Positions 3,273 to 38,508 of a stretch of DNA of 64,000 nt are shown in pieces. Source of the stretch: a phage; the sequence record OZ346228.1; one strand, given 5' to 3'. The translations under genes and the position numbers were made by a program. Position 1 is the stretch's first letter, and every line of letters starts with the position of its first letter. Below the pieces are notes generated by a model that did not search any database, had not been told where the DNA came from, and was given only the letters and a program-made list of their open reading frames with translations.

Positions 3273-3692
3273 ATGCCACAGGAAGAAATGATTTCCTACG
3301 AAATCATCTACGAGCCTGACACTAAAGATGCTCACGGTGAGTGGATGAGTAAAGACACCATCAAAAAGGCTAAAGATAACTGGGACGCAGCATACGCTGC
3401 AGGCCTAGTTTCTGAAAACCTTTTCCACTTGACCTCTACAGATGCTTTCACTATTGAAAAGACGTGGATTCAAGAAGAGTTTGATGTTGTAGTAATTGGC
3501 ACTGAGCAGGTCATCAAGGCTGGCTCTTGGGTTGCTAAAGTTAAATACAATAATCCTGAATTATGGGAAGCTAAGAAGGCTGGCATTGTTGGTGGCCTAA
3601 GCATTCAGGCAACAGGTAATGTTGATGAAGAAACTGGTGAAATTACCAACGTAAACTTCGGGATCAGTGTTGTAGAAGAGGGCAATGAATAA
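3273..3692 (+). CDS. XkdF-like prohead protease / head maturation protein (putative)
   Basis: ORF between portal and scaffold; ATG at 3273 preceded by GGGGA; N-terminal region resembles XkdF-family proteins; the longer frame from 3117 overlaps the portal gene. Confidence 0.45.
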   Translation: MPQEEMISYEIIYEPDTKDAHGEWMSKDTIKKAKDNWDAAYAAGLVSENLFHLTSTDAFTIEKTWIQEEFDVVVIGTEQVIKAGSWVAKVKYNNPELWEAKKAGIVGGLSIQATGNVDEETGEITNVNFGISVVEEGNE

Positions 3693-4669
3693 TGTCTGAA
3701 AAAACGATTACTATTAAAGAGAAGGGGATTGCCCTGTGCCATAAGGCGCAAGGCTATAGCGCTAACAACAGACCTGTATCTCTTTTGATGAAGAGTGATC
3801 TTAAGCCTGAGCAGTTAACAGACGATATTGTTAAGGCACTTCGCCAAGTTACTGTGGAGCTTAGTTTTGAAGAATACCTGCGTCGTTTCTTCGATATGTG
3901 GTATGATGATGCTAAAGCACTTGCACACATGCTTGGTTTTGAGATTGAAGAGGAGGCTTGGGCTAAAGAGCATCCTGATTGGGAATGGGCGCAAGCTGAC
4001 GCAGAGTCTTGTATTGCATGGCTGGAAGAGCGTTGTGATAACGTGACCATTCATAAGGCTGCAAAAGAAGGCAAGCAGCTTAGTGTGGTAGATCAGTACA
4101 GCCTGTTAAAAACACAACAGATTTTTGAACAAGTAACCGCTGATCTCTTCGATAAAGAAGGGAACCTGATCAAGGCGGTACAGGAACCTGCTGAGGTGGA
4201 TAAAACTACCGAGGTGGATGATGTTGCAAAATCCGCAAATACCGAGGAGAATCCGGTGGACGTAACCAAAACTAAAGAGTATCTGGATCTGCTGAAGCAA
4301 GTAGAAGAGCTGAAAGCAACCCAGAGTAAAGCTGAAGAAATCATCAAGGCCCAGGTTGAAGTTGAAAAAGCTAAAATGCTGACTAAGGCTCAAGCTTTAA
4401 GCTTTGTTGGTGAAGAAGATCATGCAACCCTGGTTGACTTCATGCTGGAAAAAGCTAACGAACCTATCGTAGCTATGCTGGAGAAAGCTCAAGCAAAAAT
4501 TGAAGAGCTGGAAGCAGAGGTGCATAAAACCAAAGAAGAGTTTGCCACCACTGAACATGGTAATGATGGCGAACCTGTTGTGGATGATATTGCAAAATCC
4601 GCAGAAGAAATTCTTGCTGAAAACGTTGCAAAAGCACTTGCTCGTGCACGTGCAGAATCTACCAAATAA
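3692..4669 (+). CDS. capsid scaffolding protein (putative)
   Basis: 325 aa, acidic and helix-rich with repeated DD[IV]AKSA motif; sits immediately upstream of decoration and major capsid genes; start overlaps upstream stop (TAATG). Confidence 0.6.
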   Translation: MSEKTITIKEKGIALCHKAQGYSANNRPVSLLMKSDLKPEQLTDDIVKALRQVTVELSFEEYLRRFFDMWYDDAKALAHMLGFEIEEEAWAKEHPDWEWAQADAESCIAWLEERCDNVTIHKAAKEGKQLSVVDQYSLLKTQQIFEQVTADLFDKEGNLIKAVQEPAEVDKTTEVDDVAKSANTEENPVDVTKTKEYLDLLKQVEELKATQSKAEEIIKAQVEVEKAKMLTKAQALSFVGEEDHATLVDFMLEKANEPIVAMLEKAQAKIEELEAEVHKTKEEFATTEHGNDGEPVVDDIAKSAEEILAENVAKALARARAESTK

Positions 4670-8686: not shown

Positions 8687-9237
8687 TGGAAGCTTTCGAA
8701 AAAGTTTTTTCTGATCTTGAAACAACCATTGCTAAGCTTGTCAAGGTTGCCACAGGAAGAACTGTAGTTCTGGCAGAAAGCTCTACCATACCGAAGCCGG
8801 AAGGTGAGTTTGTACTTTTACAAACCTTGGCGATCAATCCCACCACTTGGGAAGATAATGAGTTTCAAGATGCGGAGGGTAATGCTTACGTAACACACAG
8901 TTACACTGTTACCTATCTGTTAACAGCTTATCGTGGCAGGGCACATGCTGCACTTAGCAGAGTATTGCAAGCAATAAACCTTCCAATGTTTTATGACAAG
9001 TATTTCCCTCTGGGATCGTGCTTTGCCTACTCTAACAATTCAACAATCTCACCTCAAAGAGTGCCGTTGAATAAGCAGACGTATGAAAATAGAGCCACTG
9101 TGATGCTGACATTTAACGTAAGGTTTGTTGAAACAGACATTGGGGCTTTTGAGGATCTTCAGGGAATTAAGGCTGAAATAACCACACACTTCCCTTCACC
9201 CAATTCTGGTAAAGCGGTTACAGACAGTGGTCAGTAA
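8686..9237 (+). CDS. tail completion / neck protein (hypothetical)
   Basis: 183-aa ORF with start overlapping upstream stop; last gene before putative sheath. Confidence 0.35.
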   Translation: MEAFEKVFSDLETTIAKLVKVATGRTVVLAESSTIPKPEGEFVLLQTLAINPTTWEDNEFQDAEGNAYVTHSYTVTYLLTAYRGRAHAALSRVLQAINLPMFYDKYFPLGSCFAYSNNSTISPQRVPLNKQTYENRATVMLTFNVRFVETDIGAFEDLQGIKAEITTHFPSPNSGKAVTDSGQ

Positions 9238-9253
9238 TCGTTATAATTGTGTA

Positions 9254-9268
9254 GTGTAATGATTACAC
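9254..9268. promoter_or_regulatory. perfect palindrome GTGTAAT-g-ATTACAC (possible operator)
   Basis: 7-bp arms around a single central base in the 72-bp gap upstream of the sheath gene. Confidence 0.3.
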
Positions 9269-9309
9269 TGCGTGTTTGATATCCGTGCACAGATATTAAG
9301 AGGAAACAA

Positions 9310-32362: not shown

Positions 32363-33049
32363 ATGGCAGAGATTAAGTCGGATGTTAACCACATCCACAC
32401 TCTGCCAGATTTTGTTCAGGGAGGTCTTGACTACCTGCCTGGAGATTTTCTGGCTGAGAAGGTTAATTTAGTCACATTCTTAACCGTATACCTTAAAAGG
32501 TTGGAGGATGTTGATAAGATGCTGGTAGGTTTGGCTGAAGGAAGATTGCTTAACAATGCCAGCGGAAGATACCTTGACGAAGTTGGTAATCAACTTGGTA
32601 TTCTTAGGAATGGACTTTCAGATGCTGATTTTCGTGCCACACTAATTATTCAGCAGGCCGCAGCATCAATGGGCGGGACTCGCGAAGATGTCATCTCCAC
32701 CTTGCGACAATTGTTCGGAAGAGACAATTTCGATACGTGGAAAGGAGACAACTTCAGGTTTGACATAAATATTAGAAAAACTTGCTTTGACATATTGCAG
32801 TCTATCGATCAGATCTTAGATATGCTACCATTGCCTTGTCATTTGCGTCTTACAGAATCGCAAGGGCAAGCTTTTGGTTTTGAAGGGGACTCTACAGCTC
32901 TTGGCTTCGGATCAGTATGGGAAGAAAACCAGTTTGGAGTTGGTGGACTGGCTACTTTGCTGTATGTTCCTGACGTAAGACCTGATTGGGACACCACAAC
33001 CATTTATTGTGAAAGTATTACAGTAAACGCAACTAGACAGGAGGGTTAA
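32363..33049 (+). CDS. baseplate/tail protein (gpI-position, hypothetical)
   Basis: 228-aa ORF directly downstream of Baseplate-J-like gene. Confidence 0.35.
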   Translation: MAEIKSDVNHIHTLPDFVQGGLDYLPGDFLAEKVNLVTFLTVYLKRLEDVDKMLVGLAEGRLLNNASGRYLDEVGNQLGILRNGLSDADFRATLIIQQAAASMGGTREDVISTLRQLFGRDNFDTWKGDNFRFDINIRKTCFDILQSIDQILDMLPLPCHLRLTESQGQAFGFEGDSTALGFGSVWEENQFGVGGLATLLYVPDVRPDWDTTTIYCESITVNATRQEG

Positions 33050-35121
33050 TGGCAACAGCTGTTTTTAAACCTTACCGTGATTACTCTACAATGGCTGCAC
33101 GGTTTCATTACCGAACAGTTCAGGATACTGCCGTTCCTGGTAGGGATTATGATCATGTTGAGGGCGATGTAACTATCCCAGTTGGGGCAACCAGTATTGA
33201 GATCCCCGTGGAAATTGTTGACAAATTACCCAACAGGTTGCCAAGAAGCTTCTTTATGGAGTTTTCATCAAAATCTCAAGGGGTGATGATTGGAACACAA
33301 AGGGCGAAATGTACAATAGTTTCAGATGAGAATCTTGACAGGATATCTTGGGATACTGTTGAGGAGAGAATGTTTCACCCAAGATATTGGGTTACAACCA
33401 CTCAGCAGACTGAAAGTACCTGTATTGTTGCAGATAACAACTGTTGTATTAACCGTTTAGTGTCAAGAACATATGGAGGTATGGCTGGGTGCATTTGGGA
33501 AACAGTTGACAAGTATGACCATTTCGGTATTGGGTTTGATGATCACTATGAGATGAGAAACACCAAGCTTTGGTTCAGAATGTCAATAACCAACGCCAGC
33601 AACTTCTCCACTCCTGAAAAGATGATTATGACTGTAGACCTTGTTGATGGCACAATCATCTATGTTCCTTTAGCTCAATATGCTGTCAGCATCTCAGAGG
33701 ATAAGAATGTTGCAGAAATTCATATTGATTTTGAGGACTGCGTCGGGATGGACCAGAACAACAACATGATGGGTGTTGATCCTCGGCAGGTGAGAAGGAT
33801 TTTAATACCGCTTATGCCTAAAGACTGGGTAAGTAATAGCACAGACCCGAGAACGGAAAATGTAAAGTGTGAGTTGCGCCTAGATCTGCTTCAGCCAGAC
33901 ACAGGCTGGAAAATGATGCAACTTAACAATATCCAGGTGAGAGAGCACGATGTTGGGATCTGCACCGCATATGACGATATGTGGAACGTGTCTCCTTTAA
34001 GGGTGTTGAACAATATCAAGCGTCTGGGCTATACCGGAACCATAAACCATTATGTTGGTATGAGTCATTATTATGACTACACATGGTCAGGAACCCAATG
34101 GTCTATAAACAGAACAGGAGCGCTAAACGCTGCAGCTTATAAATGGCATGATGATTTTATGTACAATGCCAAACGACATAACTTCGACGTTATGCAATCT
34201 GTAAGTTTTGAGCTTTTCAGCGATGCCTGCCCGTTGGAATGGACCCAAAGAGACTGGAACGATAACTACGCTAAAACAGGGTATACACCTTGTAGCTACC
34301 TCCTGTCTCCAACCATTGAAGAGGGTATGAATTTCCTTACTGCAGTATTTAAGAATTTTGCATCAGCCGCTATGAGAAACAACCTGCCAGTGATTATGCA
34401 GGTTGGTGAACCGTGGTGGTGGTACAATACCGATACTCGTAGACCTTGTATTTATGATTACCCTACAAAACAGGCGTTTTATGATGAGACAGGCGAGTAT
34501 GCATTAGATATTGGGACTATTGACGATCCTAAAACTGGCGGTGTTTACGATAAGTATGTAGCATTTTGTCGTGGTAAGCTTGGCGCTCGTATTGCGGCTA
34601 TTTCAAAGGCAATAAAGGCACACGCTGCATCAGCTCAGATGACAGCTCTGCTGTTTTTCCCAACCATTATGGAAACCGAGCTTACGCAAAAGCTTAACCT
34701 TGCTGACCAATATAAAAAGGAAGCAGGTGCTCTTGATTTCTTCTGCACCGAGTGCTACGATTGGGTGATGCAGGGAGGTATTGAAAAGGCAAAAGAGTCT
34801 GTAAACATACCTATCGTTAAGTTAGGTTGGCAACCGTCTGAAATACAATACCTTGCAGGGTTCGTTCCTAGTAAAGAGCTTGCTCCGGTATATGGCTACG
34901 ACCCAACCAGGAATTACCAAGAATTTTTATGGAGATGTATCTGCGGAAACATGGCAACCATAGAGTATAGATACCCTGAGGTAAAACAGTATGTGTGGGC
35001 ATACCCGCAAGTAATGTCTGACAGCATCACTGTTACAGCCAGAGATTCTACCGTGCTTCATATGGGGCAGGTTGCTCTGAAAGGGTATGTAGAAGATGTT
35101 GTCCCTCCAGACTTCTCATAA
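33049..35121 (+). CDS. tail protein with Calx-beta-like N-terminal domain (putative)
   Basis: 690 aa; N-terminal GRDYDHVEGDVTIPVGATSIEIPVEIVDK resembles Calx-beta motif; Trp/Tyr-rich body. Confidence 0.3.
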   Translation: MATAVFKPYRDYSTMAARFHYRTVQDTAVPGRDYDHVEGDVTIPVGATSIEIPVEIVDKLPNRLPRSFFMEFSSKSQGVMIGTQRAKCTIVSDENLDRISWDTVEERMFHPRYWVTTTQQTESTCIVADNNCCINRLVSRTYGGMAGCIWETVDKYDHFGIGFDDHYEMRNTKLWFRMSITNASNFSTPEKMIMTVDLVDGTIIYVPLAQYAVSISEDKNVAEIHIDFEDCVGMDQNNNMMGVDPRQVRRILIPLMPKDWVSNSTDPRTENVKCELRLDLLQPDTGWKMMQLNNIQVREHDVGICTAYDDMWNVSPLRVLNNIKRLGYTGTINHYVGMSHYYDYTWSGTQWSINRTGALNAAAYKWHDDFMYNAKRHNFDVMQSVSFELFSDACPLEWTQRDWNDNYAKTGYTPCSYLLSPTIEEGMNFLTAVFKNFASAAMRNNLPVIMQVGEPWWWYNTDTRRPCIYDYPTKQAFYDETGEYALDIGTIDDPKTGGVYDKYVAFCRGKLGARIAAISKAIKAHAASAQMTALLFFPTIMETELTQKLNLADQYKKEAGALDFFCTECYDWVMQGGIEKAKESVNIPIVKLGWQPSEIQYLAGFVPSKELAPVYGYDPTRNYQEFLWRCICGNMATIEYRYPEVKQYVWAYPQVMSDSITVTARDSTVLHMGQVALKGYVEDVVPPDFS

Positions 35122-35133
35122 TCAGGAGATAAA

Positions 35134-36174
35134 ATGTCAAAACCTAGTTTTCCATTAGAGATTTGGGCAGAGGAGGATCAGGTTCTGCCTAACACCCACA
35201 GACAGAACAGGCTACGCCCGATCGATGATTTGTGGAGAAAAGGTTGGGATCTTGGTCAAAAGCCATCCTGTGAAGAACTTAACTATATTTTCAATATGCT
35301 CGGAACTTGGGCAAAATACATTGCTGACGAGCAGATCCCCGCTCAAGAAGGCCGTTATCTGGTACGTGATAATAACTTGAGCGATCTTTTGAACATCCCT
35401 GTTGCCCGTAGAAACCTTGGGATTATCACTAAGGAAGAGGCAGACGCCAGGTATGTAAAAGTTACAGGTGATACAATGACAGGCCCCTTGGGGTTGCAAC
35501 GTATCAACTTTAAAGCTGCCGAGACAGATAAGGCTTGGATAGAGACAACTATTGGCCCAGATAAGACAACTCTCGACTTTGGGTTAAGTGATAATACCGG
35601 GTCGTTTGATGATGGTGGTACATCTACAGTGGATGCGTTTCGTTGGAGATTCCAGCCAACTCAGCCGGATATTAATCCAGAGTTCACTTTGATGTACCTT
35701 AACGCGATCACGGCTAATCGTGCGCTGTTGAAAGTGGTAGGCAATGTTGAAGTTGTCGATAACATGAGGTGCAATAACCTTACTATCAGCAATACAGCAA
35801 CATTCACCAACTGTAATGTGGCTAGTCAGTTGACGGCTGGGTCAGTATATGTTAATGGTGGTGCAAGTTGTGACAGTATGGTTGTAAGAAGCCAGCACTG
35901 TGTTGTCGGTAACAGAAATGTGGTGCGCTCCGTGAATGGAGTGACGGCTAACGGTAACGGTGATGTAACGATCACTATCCCGCAGACAGGTGTGCAAGAC
36001 ATCAGAATCGGTGCAAGACTTGTGGACGGCGTTTCTGAATCTCCAATCCGCAACGGCTACGTTGTCACAGGCTGGCATTTCGGTGACAAAAAAGAGATGC
36101 GTGGTTCAACCTACTGGGCAGGACCCTTACAAAAACTTGTAAATGGTCAATGGATCACTGTTAATTATGCATAG
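35134..36174 (+). CDS. tail fibre protein (copy 1)
   Basis: 346 aa; followed by Tfa-type assembly gene; N- and C-termini paralogous to 37187..38230 (ends GPLQKLVNGQWITVNYA). Confidence 0.65.
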   Translation: MSKPSFPLEIWAEEDQVLPNTHRQNRLRPIDDLWRKGWDLGQKPSCEELNYIFNMLGTWAKYIADEQIPAQEGRYLVRDNNLSDLLNIPVARRNLGIITKEEADARYVKVTGDTMTGPLGLQRINFKAAETDKAWIETTIGPDKTTLDFGLSDNTGSFDDGGTSTVDAFRWRFQPTQPDINPEFTLMYLNAITANRALLKVVGNVEVVDNMRCNNLTISNTATFTNCNVASQLTAGSVYVNGGASCDSMVVRSQHCVVGNRNVVRSVNGVTANGNGDVTITIPQTGVQDIRIGARLVDGVSESPIRNGYVVTGWHFGDKKEMRGSTYWAGPLQKLVNGQWITVNYA

Positions 36175-36188
36175 ATCGGAGGACTAGC

Positions 36189-36773
36189 ATGAAAATACTT
36201 CAAGAGTTTAAACTTTACCAACCAGGATCTGGCGAATACCACTCCAACAAGGAAACCAAGGAGCTGACCCCTCAAGAGGTAGAGGATTACACCGCATACA
36301 CTGGGTATTTTTTACGTAATGATGATGGTGATTGGTATGTGCAGTCACGAACATTACGACAAGAAAATCCAGGGTGTATCTTCCTACTTGTTGACGAGAA
36401 GGGAATTCTTAAGACATCTACAGAAGAACCTGATGCCTTATGGCCTGCTCCAGGTCTTCGTGTGGTTATCGCCAAAAAAGAAGAGGTACCAGAAAACATT
36501 ATGCTTCACCACGACGCTTTGCGTTTAGTTGGTGATGAATTTGTCACAGACAATGAATTCTTTGTTCAACAGGCAGAGGGTGTCATAGAGACAGAACTTG
36601 CTTGGGCTACTGCTAGAATTGGTGCCTATCAAGACATGATTGACCTTGAATATGATCTTACTGATGACCAGAAACGTAACATCAGAGATTTGAAAATGTA
36701 CAGGGTAAAACTTCTTGAAATAGATACATCTAAAGCCCCTGACATTTTCTTCCCAGAGCGACCTACCCTCTAA
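36189..36773 (+). CDS. tfa: tail fibre assembly protein (Tfa family)
   Basis: 194 aa; C-terminal signature YRVKLLEIDTSKAPDIFFPERP typical of lambda Tfa / P2 gpG; immediately downstream of fibre gene. Confidence 0.75.
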   Translation: MKILQEFKLYQPGSGEYHSNKETKELTPQEVEDYTAYTGYFLRNDDGDWYVQSRTLRQENPGCIFLLVDEKGILKTSTEEPDALWPAPGLRVVIAKKEEVPENIMLHHDALRLVGDEFVTDNEFFVQQAEGVIETELAWATARIGAYQDMIDLEYDLTDDQKRNIRDLKMYRVKLLEIDTSKAPDIFFPERPTL

Positions 36774-36784
36774 GAGGAGGTGTT

Positions 36785-37099
36785 GTGGAGTTGGATTTGG
36801 CGGCATTGTACGGTATCTGCATGGGTACCGTTGTCCCGATCTGTGTATGGGCTTTCAACCAGTGGCACACCAAATGGAAAGACATTTCCAAGAGGTTGGA
36901 TGAGCTGGAGAAAGACCTCATCTTAGTGAAAAACAGTATGGTTACAAAAGATAAACTTGATTCCGTTATAGAGACCCGGTTAAGCAAGCTAGAGGCCGAT
37001 ATTAACGACCTTAAGCAGGATGTCAGGACAGATGTCTCCGGCATCAGAGCCGATGTACAAAAGATTTTGCACATGCTCGTAGAGCATAGTAAAAGGTAA
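36785..37099 (+). CDS. small membrane-anchored coiled-coil protein (hypothetical)
   Basis: 104 aa, GTG start after RBS AGGAGG; hydrophobic N-terminus LAALYGICMGTVVPICVWAF followed by heptad-like helix. Confidence 0.35.
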   Translation: MELDLAALYGICMGTVVPICVWAFNQWHTKWKDISKRLDELEKDLILVKNSMVTKDKLDSVIETRLSKLEADINDLKQDVRTDVSGIRADVQKILHMLVEHSKR

Positions 37100-37127: not shown

Positions 37128-37156
37128 TTGCATTTTGTTCCCTAAAGTGTTAAAAT
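37128..37156 (+). promoter_or_regulatory. sigma70-like promoter, extended -10
   Basis: TTGCAT, 17-nt spacer, TGtTAAAAT; upstream of second tail fibre gene. Confidence 0.5.
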
Positions 37157-37186
37157 AGTCCTAAGGAATTTTCTCAGGAGAACGTG

Positions 37187-38230
37187 ATGACTAAACCAGT
37201 TATCCCTCTTGATATTTGGGCCAATCAGGATGTTGTGCTTGAAAATACGGGAGAGTTGAATAAGTCTCAACCAAAAAAAGAAGAGAGATTGAAAGGTTGG
37301 GATATGACACAAAGAGTGGCATGTGAAGTTGTTAACTTTGAACTTCACATGCTTTCTGCGTGGTTAAAGCATTTAACAGAAGATGTTGTCCCAGGATGGG
37401 ATAATAGATTCTTAAGGGTCACTAATAATCTAGCAGACGTTCCAGACAAAGCTGCTGCACGTCAAGTTCTCAATGTATACTCGCCTGAAGAAATGGACGA
37501 TCTGTATGTTGACAAGTCTGGAGACATAATGACTCAGACTCAAACTTTAGGCCTTCAAAGAATCGAGTTTGCATCTGCGTCAACAGACAATGCGGCAATA
37601 TATACCACCATAACTCCAGACAAGACGACGATGGACTTCTGGATTATGGACAACATCGGTGGTGCTGACGGCACAGACCTTGATGATCCTTCTCACCAAA
37701 TAGACGGGTTCCGTTGGAGATTTCAACCTTCTGGTGGGCAGCCTGTGTTTTCGGCTATGAAGCTCAATGCTATAACTGCCAACCGTGCAAGACTGGCTAT
37801 CCAAGGAAATCTTGAATGCAACGATGCAAAAAGTTCCTCTGCAAATGCCAATGCGGTCACGATACCAAGAGCCACTGTTAACGGACAACAATCCTGCGGA
37901 AGCGCTCAAATAGGTGGAAGAGTTGATTGTAACGATGAAACCGTTAGAGGCCAATATGCAACCGTTGGTGGAAGAAACGTGGTCCGCAGGGTAAACGGTA
38001 ACAGCGCAGACGGTAGTGGTAACCTTACTGTCCCTATGCCCAGTAGAGGGGTTGACGATGTAAGGATAGCGAACCGTTTCAAAACCACCTACAGAGAGTC
38101 AAGGGTCTACCCTGGACATGTGATGTGCTCTGGTAACTACGCTTATAAACACCCTTATCAAGGTGATTACTGGACAGGTGCTATCCAAAAACTTGTAAAC
38201 GGTCAATGGATCACTATATCTTATGCTTAA
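37187..38230 (+). CDS. tail fibre protein (copy 2, paralog)
   Basis: ATG 37187 after RBS CAGGAG and own promoter TTGCAT-17-TGtTAAAAT; N-terminus PLDIWA and C-terminus GAIQKLVNGQWITISYA shared with copy 1. Confidence 0.6.
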   Translation: MTKPVIPLDIWANQDVVLENTGELNKSQPKKEERLKGWDMTQRVACEVVNFELHMLSAWLKHLTEDVVPGWDNRFLRVTNNLADVPDKAAARQVLNVYSPEEMDDLYVDKSGDIMTQTQTLGLQRIEFASASTDNAAIYTTITPDKTTMDFWIMDNIGGADGTDLDDPSHQIDGFRWRFQPSGGQPVFSAMKLNAITANRARLAIQGNLECNDAKSSSANANAVTIPRATVNGQQSCGSAQIGGRVDCNDETVRGQYATVGGRNVVRRVNGNSADGSGNLTVPMPSRGVDDVRIANRFKTTYRESRVYPGHVMCSGNYAYKHPYQGDYWTGAIQKLVNGQWITISYA

Positions 38231-38241
38231 AAAGAGGGTAA

Positions 38242-38508
38242 ATGAAACTAACTCAGTTTTTATGGGGACTGGTTGCGGAATCTGATGACCCTACGAAAGT
38301 ATCCCAATCTAAGCTATGGTCGAACATAGGCATGGTGGTGATGACTGGGGTGTTTATTCATATGGGGTATAATGATACGCTTCCTGAATGGTATGCGTGG
38401 ATATATGCACCTTCAGTAGCCTGCCCCCAGCTTATTAGCAAATTCATCTCGCTCCGGTGGGGTTGCCAGCACCCTGACCACGTTAAAAACGAAGAGCAAA
38501 AAGCTTAA
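38242..38508 (+). CDS. small hydrophobic protein (hypothetical)
   Basis: 88 aa with central hydrophobic segment NIGMVVMTGVFIHMG; follows second fibre gene. Confidence 0.3.
   Translation: MKLTQFLWGLVAESDDPTKVSQSKLWSNIGMVVMTGVFIHMGYNDTLPEWYAWIYAPSVACPQLISKFISLRWGCQHPDHVKNEEQKA

Follow-up and report, generated by a model that had tools for sequence, protein, structure and literature searches.

The 64,000 nucleotides of phage DNA analyzed here (sequence record OZ346228.1; the window) carry at 36785..37099, on the plus strand, a gene for a 104-residue protein orthologous to gp31 of phage rV5. We propose, at a rough probability of 0.35, that this protein, for which the name gp31 is kept, is a trimeric inner-membrane partner or regulator within a conserved set of late membrane proteins that probably controls the timing of lysis. 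In this proposal gp31 would be a late-expressed, bitopic protein of the inner membrane that stays out of the virion and comprises an acidic N-terminal tail, one transmembrane (TM) helix, and a stalk of ∼75 residues. Together with a polytopic protein and a protein resembling rV5 gp29 it would make up the lysis-timing module of the rV5-like myophages. The gp29-like protein would form the hole; the gp31 trimer, by way of its membrane helix and its stalk in the cytoplasm, would be a partner or regulator of hole formation in the manner of a holin accessory or an antiholin; and the polytopic protein, dispensable and lost in Vequintavirus, would be a modulator of the antiholin type.

The gp31 gene is a genuine open reading frame (ORF) of 104 codons with a GTG start, preceded at a distance of 4 nt by a Shine-Dalgarno sequence (AGGAGG; 36775..36780, plus strand), and a motif of this kind precedes the equivalent start in all homologues examined. 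The window is Vequintavirus DNA: the surrounding 3.6 kb are 98–99.5% identical to those of more than 100 genomes of that genus, the rV5-like Escherichia coli myophages, and the protein itself is 98% identical to rV5 gp31 (YP_002003533), which occupies the same position and from which we see no difference in kind. All 104 residues align with the 104 positions of the PHROG 5345 profile (E = 4.2e-48). Compared with its counterpart in a divergent but collinear Vequintavirus lineage, the gene is 84% identical in protein and 78% in DNA, giving a ratio of nonsynonymous to synonymous substitution rates (dN/dS) of ∼0.04, a value that is approximate because synonymous sites are saturated. The gene is under strong purifying selection and is no chance ORF; because this selection acts on the annotated frame, we regard the antisense ORF at 36763..37074 (minus strand) and the overlapping ORF at 36780..36926 (plus strand) as spurious.

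Homologues sharing 23–35% identity were found in 226 phage records and in ∼130 protein clusters, all on contigs of ∼115–160 kb. A HMMER search of 1.8 billion representative proteins yielded full-length relatives of 92–115 residues in about a dozen small clusters, and beyond these only repeat-type coiled-coil matches, with no informative relatives. In scans of Pfam, NCBIfam, and PHROG with the window protein and divergent homologues, PHROG 5345 alone was above threshold, the other matches being subthreshold coiled-coil noise. The gene is already catalogued as coding for a conserved hypothetical membrane protein: rV5 gp31 was listed in 2013 as “membrane protein, 1 TMD” (one transmembrane domain, by TMHMM/Phobius; PMC3606486, Table S3), PHROG 5345 is of “unknown function,” BASEL and RefSeq give “hypothetical protein,” and the homologue in the KP12 paper (peg.101) was left hypothetical. 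Some GenBank records label a homologue “tail fiber protein,” and a source label of “DUF2746” on one homologue could not be reproduced with Pfam. In a CRISPRi-ART study that included the rV5-like phage EdH4, the genes targeted in that phage were those for the capsid and rII only. New to our knowledge are the trimer signature with its beta-layer, the predicted orientation, the extent of the three-gene set and its remodeling in Vequintavirus, and the exclusion of a spanin role.

Residues 5–23 are the only strongly hydrophobic stretch of gp31, with a mean Kyte-Doolittle hydropathy of 1.9 over a 19-residue window and a sum on the Hessa scale of about 1.5–2 kcal/mol over 17–19 residues. The four-residue tail ahead of it (MELD; 36785..36796) contains no lysine or arginine and has an acidic residue, D or E, at position 4 in every homologue examined. 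The hydrophobic helix itself (residues ∼5–27; 36797..36865) is followed by a flank rich in lysine and arginine (K30, K32, K36, and R37). In 131 of 132 family members these residues are more frequent in the 15 positions past the helix (mean 3.1) than in the N-terminal tail (mean 0.07). Read with the positive-inside rule, this charge bias indicates that gp31 is most likely oriented with its N-terminus outside and its C-terminus inside, placing the stalk in the cytoplasm. The N-terminus lacks the positive charges that mark the n-region of a Sec signal peptide, and it has no lipobox cysteine.

The first coiled-coil segment of the stalk (residues 28–51; 36866..36937) has a core of I34, L38, L41, L45, and V48 at heptad spacing, and the second (residues 59–104; 36959..37096) follows a hydrophobic periodicity of 3.65 residues, which over residues 55–104 is reached by 0.15% of shuffled sequences. 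Between the two lies the signature M52-V-T-K-D-K-L58 (36938..36958), a six-residue insertion in the heptad register: V48 occupies a d position, K-N-S positions e, f, and g, then comes the triplet M-V-T, followed by K-D-K at e, f, and g, and the core resumes with L58 at a. The signature, in the form MVTK(D/E)x(L/I), is present in 119 of the 132 family members, starting at residue 52 in 103 of them. An AlphaFold2 model of the monomer (mean predicted local distance difference test, pLDDT, 76) consists of two long helices, residues 2–53 and 55–103, broken at residue 54, where pLDDT dips.

Hexad or nonad insertions in parallel trimeric coiled coils are known to form a beta-layer, with the consensus [aliphatic]-A-T-K-[polar]-[DE], and the insert MATKDD placed between GCN4 heptads forms one; known beta-layer proteins are nearly all homotrimers, the SLH domain being an exception (Hartmann et al., eLife 2016, PMC4786415). 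Residues 52–57 of gp31 (M-V-T-K-D-K) fit this consensus with V in place of A at the central position. When the family profile was compared with all PDB sequences, the top match was 6h9l_A (E = 7.6e-4); the GCN4-MATKDD constructs 5apw and 5apx came next (E = 0.08), the alignments falling on the motif. Because the heptad-inserted motif fits the consensus, the PDB matches fall on it, and the AlphaFold2 helix breaks at residue 54, the ∼75-residue stalk is most likely an alpha/beta coiled coil of the parallel homotrimeric kind, in which M52-V-T54 forms the single beta-layer. The structure 6h9l we take to be the bacterial CCDC90B/MCUR1-type protein of Adlakha et al. 2019. Like the DUF1640 family to which we compare it, gp31 combines a single membrane anchor with a stalk carrying an x-(A/V)-T-K-x-(D/E) motif, and this motif marks DUF1640 as a family of membrane-anchored stalk proteins (PMC4786415). 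The anchor of DUF1640 proteins is C-terminal, whereas that of gp31 is N-terminal; they carry a series of beta-layers as opposed to one, and gp31 lacks a head domain and is found in a phage context. PF07798 (DUF1640) was not among the Pfam matches up to E = 1 for four gp31 family members, and the resemblance is structural and not necessarily one of homology.

Relative to the other enterobacterial members of 104 residues, gp31 of the Certrevirus type has a seven-residue insertion, the sole length difference among the enterobacterial genera, and an insertion of exactly one heptad is expected if the register must be preserved. Distant members from Aeromonas phages and IMG/VR have an additional four-residue insertion and a four-residue deletion. 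A preliminary description of the window, drawn from its letters without database searches, had reported a 104-residue ORF with a strong ribosome-binding site and one N-terminal hydrophobic helix followed by a long heptad-like helix, situated between the Tfa gene and a second fibre gene; the ORF and its AGGAGG, the helix (residues 5–23 here and one TMD in the rV5 orthologue), the periodic stalk, and the location are all borne out. Its suggestion to look for the gene at the same position in relatives led well beyond the genus, to all rV5-like genera and to Aeromonas phages, in which homologues come after the chaperone gene.

In these relatives the genes encode, one after the other, baseplate wedge, baseplate protein, short tail fibre (STF), tail-fibre assembly chaperone (Tfa), gp31-like protein, polytopic protein of 128–157 residues, gp29-like protein of ∼88 residues, and a fibre whose N-terminus is gp28-like. 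The arrangement recurs in Seunavirus, Certrevirus, a Serratia phage, Mydovirus, Henunavirus, phage A73, a 117-kb IMG/VR contig, and the Aeromonas Plateaulakevirus. Vequintavirus is the exception, with a duplicated STF gene replacing the polytopic gene and a copy of a P030-type late promoter preceding the second STF. In the window, all on the plus strand, gp31 is thus flanked upstream by STF1 (rV5 gp33; 35134..36174) and by Tfa (rV5 gp32; 36189..36773; Caudo_TAP PF02413, E = 9e-12), which is always directly upstream of the gp31 family. Downstream, the spacer between gp31 and STF2 holds a late-promoter motif (GTGTTAAAATA core; 37135..37171) identical to rV5 P030 at 36 of 37 nt (PMC3606486, Table S4). 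It is followed by STF2 (rV5 gp30; 37184..38230; phrog_4465, E = 5e-166), a paralogue of STF1 standing in the slot that the polytopic gene (phrog_7451) has in relatives, and by the 88-residue membrane protein with holin-like features (rV5 gp29, phrog_1322; 38242..38508). In rV5 the gene block is bracketed by late promoters and terminators (PMC3606486). Both paralogous STF genes of the window share the single chaperone gene at 36189..36773. Aeromonas phage 2L372X (NC_048770.1) has an unannotated polytopic ORF of 146 residues between its gp31-like and gp29-like genes (locus 3496..3936), completing the three-gene set in a genus outside the Vequintavirinae.

The gp29-like protein occurs in 374 phage records, those of phi92-like, phAPEC8-like, and Aeromonas phages among them. 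Its residues 1–74 form a conserved hydrophobic core, and its C-terminal tail of 0–50 residues is hypervariable, highly charged, and often ends in RR. An amphipathic N-terminal helix is followed by a TM helix and then by a hydrophobic helix that is kinked and contains invariant prolines (low AlphaFold2 confidence, pLDDT 59). Such features are typical of holins, and the protein looks holin-like. It has no family assignment; a source label of “DUF2644” on a homologue was not reproducible with Pfam, and a literature search found no paper mentioning DUF2644. A link between gp31 and the polytopic protein is suggested by the TM segment. At a matched coiled-coil divergence of ∼31% identity, TM segments are 35% identical (minimum 26%) among lineages with the polytopic gene and 14% identical (maximum 22%) between these and Vequintavirus, in which the gene is lost. 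The change of the membrane helix, far larger than expected in the one lineage that lost this gene, weakly suggests a helix–helix contact between gp31 and the polytopic protein, weakly because it is a single evolutionary event.

The data available on virions argue that gp31 is not a virion protein. Mass spectrometry (MS) of rV5 virions gave no evidence for gp31 (PMC3606486, Table S3) and detected the neighboring Tfa gp32, MS of CB7 virions found CB7_31, 36, and 37 and none of 32–35, and the component list of the 2026 cryo-electron microscopy study of phi92 names none of the proteins encoded by the small genes that follow the chaperone gene (PMC13450770). Because MS easily misses small hydrophobic proteins, this agreement is supportive and not conclusive.

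Small late membrane proteins encoded after fibre or chaperone genes, or within late operons, have precedents. In T4 the holin gene t directly follows the chaperone gene 38, in T7 the holin gene 17.5 directly follows the fibre gene 17 and the spanins lie beside the terminase genes, and in P2 the holin Y and the four-TMD antiholin LysA are encoded inside the late morphogenetic operon. The position of gp31, which the preliminary description had called unusual for a structural operon, is therefore less so than stated, and it is because of these maps that we favor, by analogy, a role in lysis timing. T4 t, T7 17.5, and P2 Y and lysA have no sequence similarity to gp31, and the analogy is positional only; T4 T, furthermore, has a large periplasmic domain. 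Holins proposed so far for this group are gp129 in the rV5 paper, bas48_0115 in BASEL, and CB7_82 in the CB7 paper, which are mutually unrelated and were chosen for their TM helices alone. Gp31 also agrees with the general description of a holin in being small, in having one or more TMDs, and in ending in a hydrophilic, charged C-terminus, a description that is generic and does not discriminate. XhlA is a small coiled-coil protein with one TM segment in PBSX-like phages of Gram-positive bacteria, its gene standing between the fibre genes and the holin gene. The two are alike in this build, but the TM segment is C-terminal in XhlA and N-terminal in gp31, and the type of host differs. Membership of gp31 in the XhlA family (PF10779) was rejected, the match covering 20 residues with 14.7 bits against a cutoff of 34.7 bits (E = 0.036).

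Several observations weigh against a role in lysis timing. The endolysin gene (rV5 gp89) lies elsewhere in the genome and not beside gp31, and no significant similarity of gp31 to a characterized holin, antiholin, or lysis regulator was found, the Pfam, NCBIfam, and PHROG lysis matches being far below threshold. The co-variation of the TM segment stems from one gene-loss event, the PDB matches are marginal (E = 7.6e-4 to 0.08) and of the coiled-coil type, the topology and trimeric state are themselves predictions made from sequence alone, and the virion data carry the bias against small hydrophobic proteins described above. Finally, in phi92-like phages the positional analogue of gp31 and the chaperone gene have stayed together, with the gp29-like gene ∼4 kb distant, and a fibre-linked role accounts for this arrangement at least equally well.

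This phi92-like analogue is a protein of 113 residues (bas60_0034, phrog_15210) that occupies the slot of gp31 after the chaperone and likewise has an acidic N-terminal tail, a TM helix, and a coiled coil with a beta-layer-type motif, Y-A-T-K-A-E; the phi92-like locus differs from the rV5-like one in having no polytopic neighbor beside it. Reciprocal PHROG matches between gp31 and this protein are weak (E = 8e-4 to 2e-3), as is the hhalign comparison (E = 3.7e-4, 36% probability), so that homology is suggested and not established. The local alignment of the Vequintavirus TM segment with that of the analogue scores no better than its alignment with the Seunavirus homologue, and we make no claim of special similarity. 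The “lipoprotein” label on bas60_0034 of PaulScherrer (locus 8933..9274) and on JR322_gp031 of phage muut is unsupported, as neither has a lipobox cysteine.

The foremost alternative, which we judge possible but unlikely, is that the trimeric cytoplasmic stalk of gp31 binds the fibre–chaperone complex or the baseplate and holds or templates it at the inner membrane until assembly, itself remaining absent from the particle. In its favor, gp31 directly follows the Tfa gene in every lineage, even in the phi92-like phages, whose gp29-like gene lies apart, its predicted trimeric state matches that of the fibres, and its absence from virions is what a chaperone would show; most solved beta-layer proteins, moreover, are phage fibres or spikes (PMC4786415). 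Weak profile matches to fibritin, a short tail fibre, reovirus sigma-1, and the PHROG fibritin family point in the same direction. Coiled-coil fibre chaperones do exist, such as T4 gp57A and fibritin, but we know of no membrane-anchored one. The sequence of gp31 does not track the type of fibre either, its signature being constant while the fibres differ strongly between genera, and its TM segment co-varies with the polytopic membrane neighbor and not with the fibre; synteny within a conserved late operon is, besides, weak evidence of function. Gp31 had no match to PF02413 or related chaperone PHROGs, the Caudo_TAP domain being found in the upstream gene instead. The specific claim that the stalk tethers or templates STF–chaperone complexes or baseplates at the inner membrane, or, in a milder form, that gp31 is part of a new three-part holin system of the whole rV5/phi92 superfamily with the polytopic and gp29-like proteins, we likewise consider unlikely, marginally more so. 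Both a fibre-associated membrane factor and a lysis accessory in the wider sense of a holin partner or regulator, two of the roles raised in the preliminary description, stand as candidate roles for gp31.

Superinfection exclusion, likewise suggested in that description, is the least favored of these because gp31 lies in a late structural operon. Exclusion-type genes often adjoin receptor-binding genes, as do llp of T5, cor, and the seroconversion genes beside tailspikes, the set consists of small membrane proteins, and PHROGs places phrog_1322 in the category “moron, auxiliary metabolic gene and host takeover”; gp31 and its membrane neighbors might in this case modify the envelope, blocking DNA entry by related phages or the adsorption of progeny to debris. 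Expression between late promoters would be too late for classical exclusion, however, and universal conservation with a dN/dS of 0.04 is unlike that of accessory morons. The gene is kept from Aeromonas to Enterobacterales phages with different receptors, and a predicted cytoplasmic stalk could not reach incoming phage components, which together make exclusion improbable. There is still less reason to see gp31 as a minor part of the virion, such as a small trimeric adaptor in the network of fibres that buries its hydrophobic N-terminus in an interface between proteins and not in a membrane. The “tail fiber protein” labels, the fibre-type trimeric coiled coil, and the detection of the adjacent Tfa in rV5 virions would agree with such a role, whereas gp31 was undetected in the rV5 and CB7 preparations and is not in the phi92 particle model, and a 20-residue hydrophobic helix with a lysine- and arginine-rich flank is typical of a membrane anchor.

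Least probable of all is that gp31 is an Rz-like i-spanin, the inner-membrane subunit of a two-component spanin, through which the inner and outer membranes become fused at lysis. Rz-type i-spanins (lambda Rz; bas48_0001/rV5 gp67) resemble gp31 in having an N-terminal TM segment followed by a helical coiled coil and a similar length, and weak PHROG matches to Rz-like families were obtained (phrog_7686, E = 0.064; phrog_739, E = 0.02, the latter with the CR3 homologue). In the rV5-like phages, however, a canonical pair of i- and o-spanin genes already stands next to the large terminase gene (PMC7344957; bas48_0001/0002 in BASEL), much as the T7 spanins adjoin the terminase genes. The o-spanin of the group has the lipobox LLLCGC and the i-spanin has R10, R12, and K16 ahead of its TMD, in contrast to the gp31 tail, which lacks this positive flank and whose charge bias predicts the opposite orientation, with the C-terminus inside. 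Gp31 also has no o-spanin partner, since the gene downstream encodes a fibre or a polytopic protein, and in 11 lineages no lipobox ORF was found embedded in, overlapping, or 3' of the gp31-like gene. The spanin-like role entertained in the preliminary description can on these grounds be set aside. Its remark that the window holds no spanin pair was correct, but this is an edge effect: position 1 of the window is the ATG of the terminase large subunit gene, and in the near-identical phage CarlMeissner (MZ501054.1, 1–683) the i- and o-spanin genes lie immediately upstream, so that the pair escaped notice because it falls just outside. Whatever probability these explanations leave over belongs to some other function.

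The rV5-like and phi92-like phages rank with the coliphages isolated most often, and cocktails for therapy and biocontrol make use of them. If the gp31 set is a lysis clock, the annotation of several hundred genomes improves; if gp31 is a membrane-bound factor of fibre assembly, this would be a new step in myophage morphogenesis, so far undescribed for any phage. The beta-layer signature provides a concrete structural prediction for a protein labeled “hypothetical,” and the conserved set of late, apparently non-virion membrane proteins after the fibre and chaperone genes, while no surprise to a specialist, is an inexpensive target for knock-down.

Three further observations concern the surroundings of gp31 and its homologues in the databases. 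Upstream of STF1, the orthologue of rV5 gp34 (33049..35121, plus strand) has a Calx-beta domain in addition to the N-terminal and TIM-barrel domains of a “non-contractile tail sheath protein” (PF23844; PF23845, E = 4e-80), although the tail is contractile; BASEL labels it a lateral fibre with glycosidase and deacetylase domains. Among the GenBank MG0656xx entries, 16–21 “Campylobacter phage” records (host Campylobacter jejuni) are, in this region, ∼98% identical to E. coli rV5-like phages, and their host attribution looks doubtful. In Klebsiella phage K18PH07C1 (OY978784.1, 37223–42534) the annotation table is apparently out of register, placing endolysin, thioredoxin, and ribonucleotide reductase over the tail-fibre and gp31-like region with all features partial or pseudo, and it was ignored.

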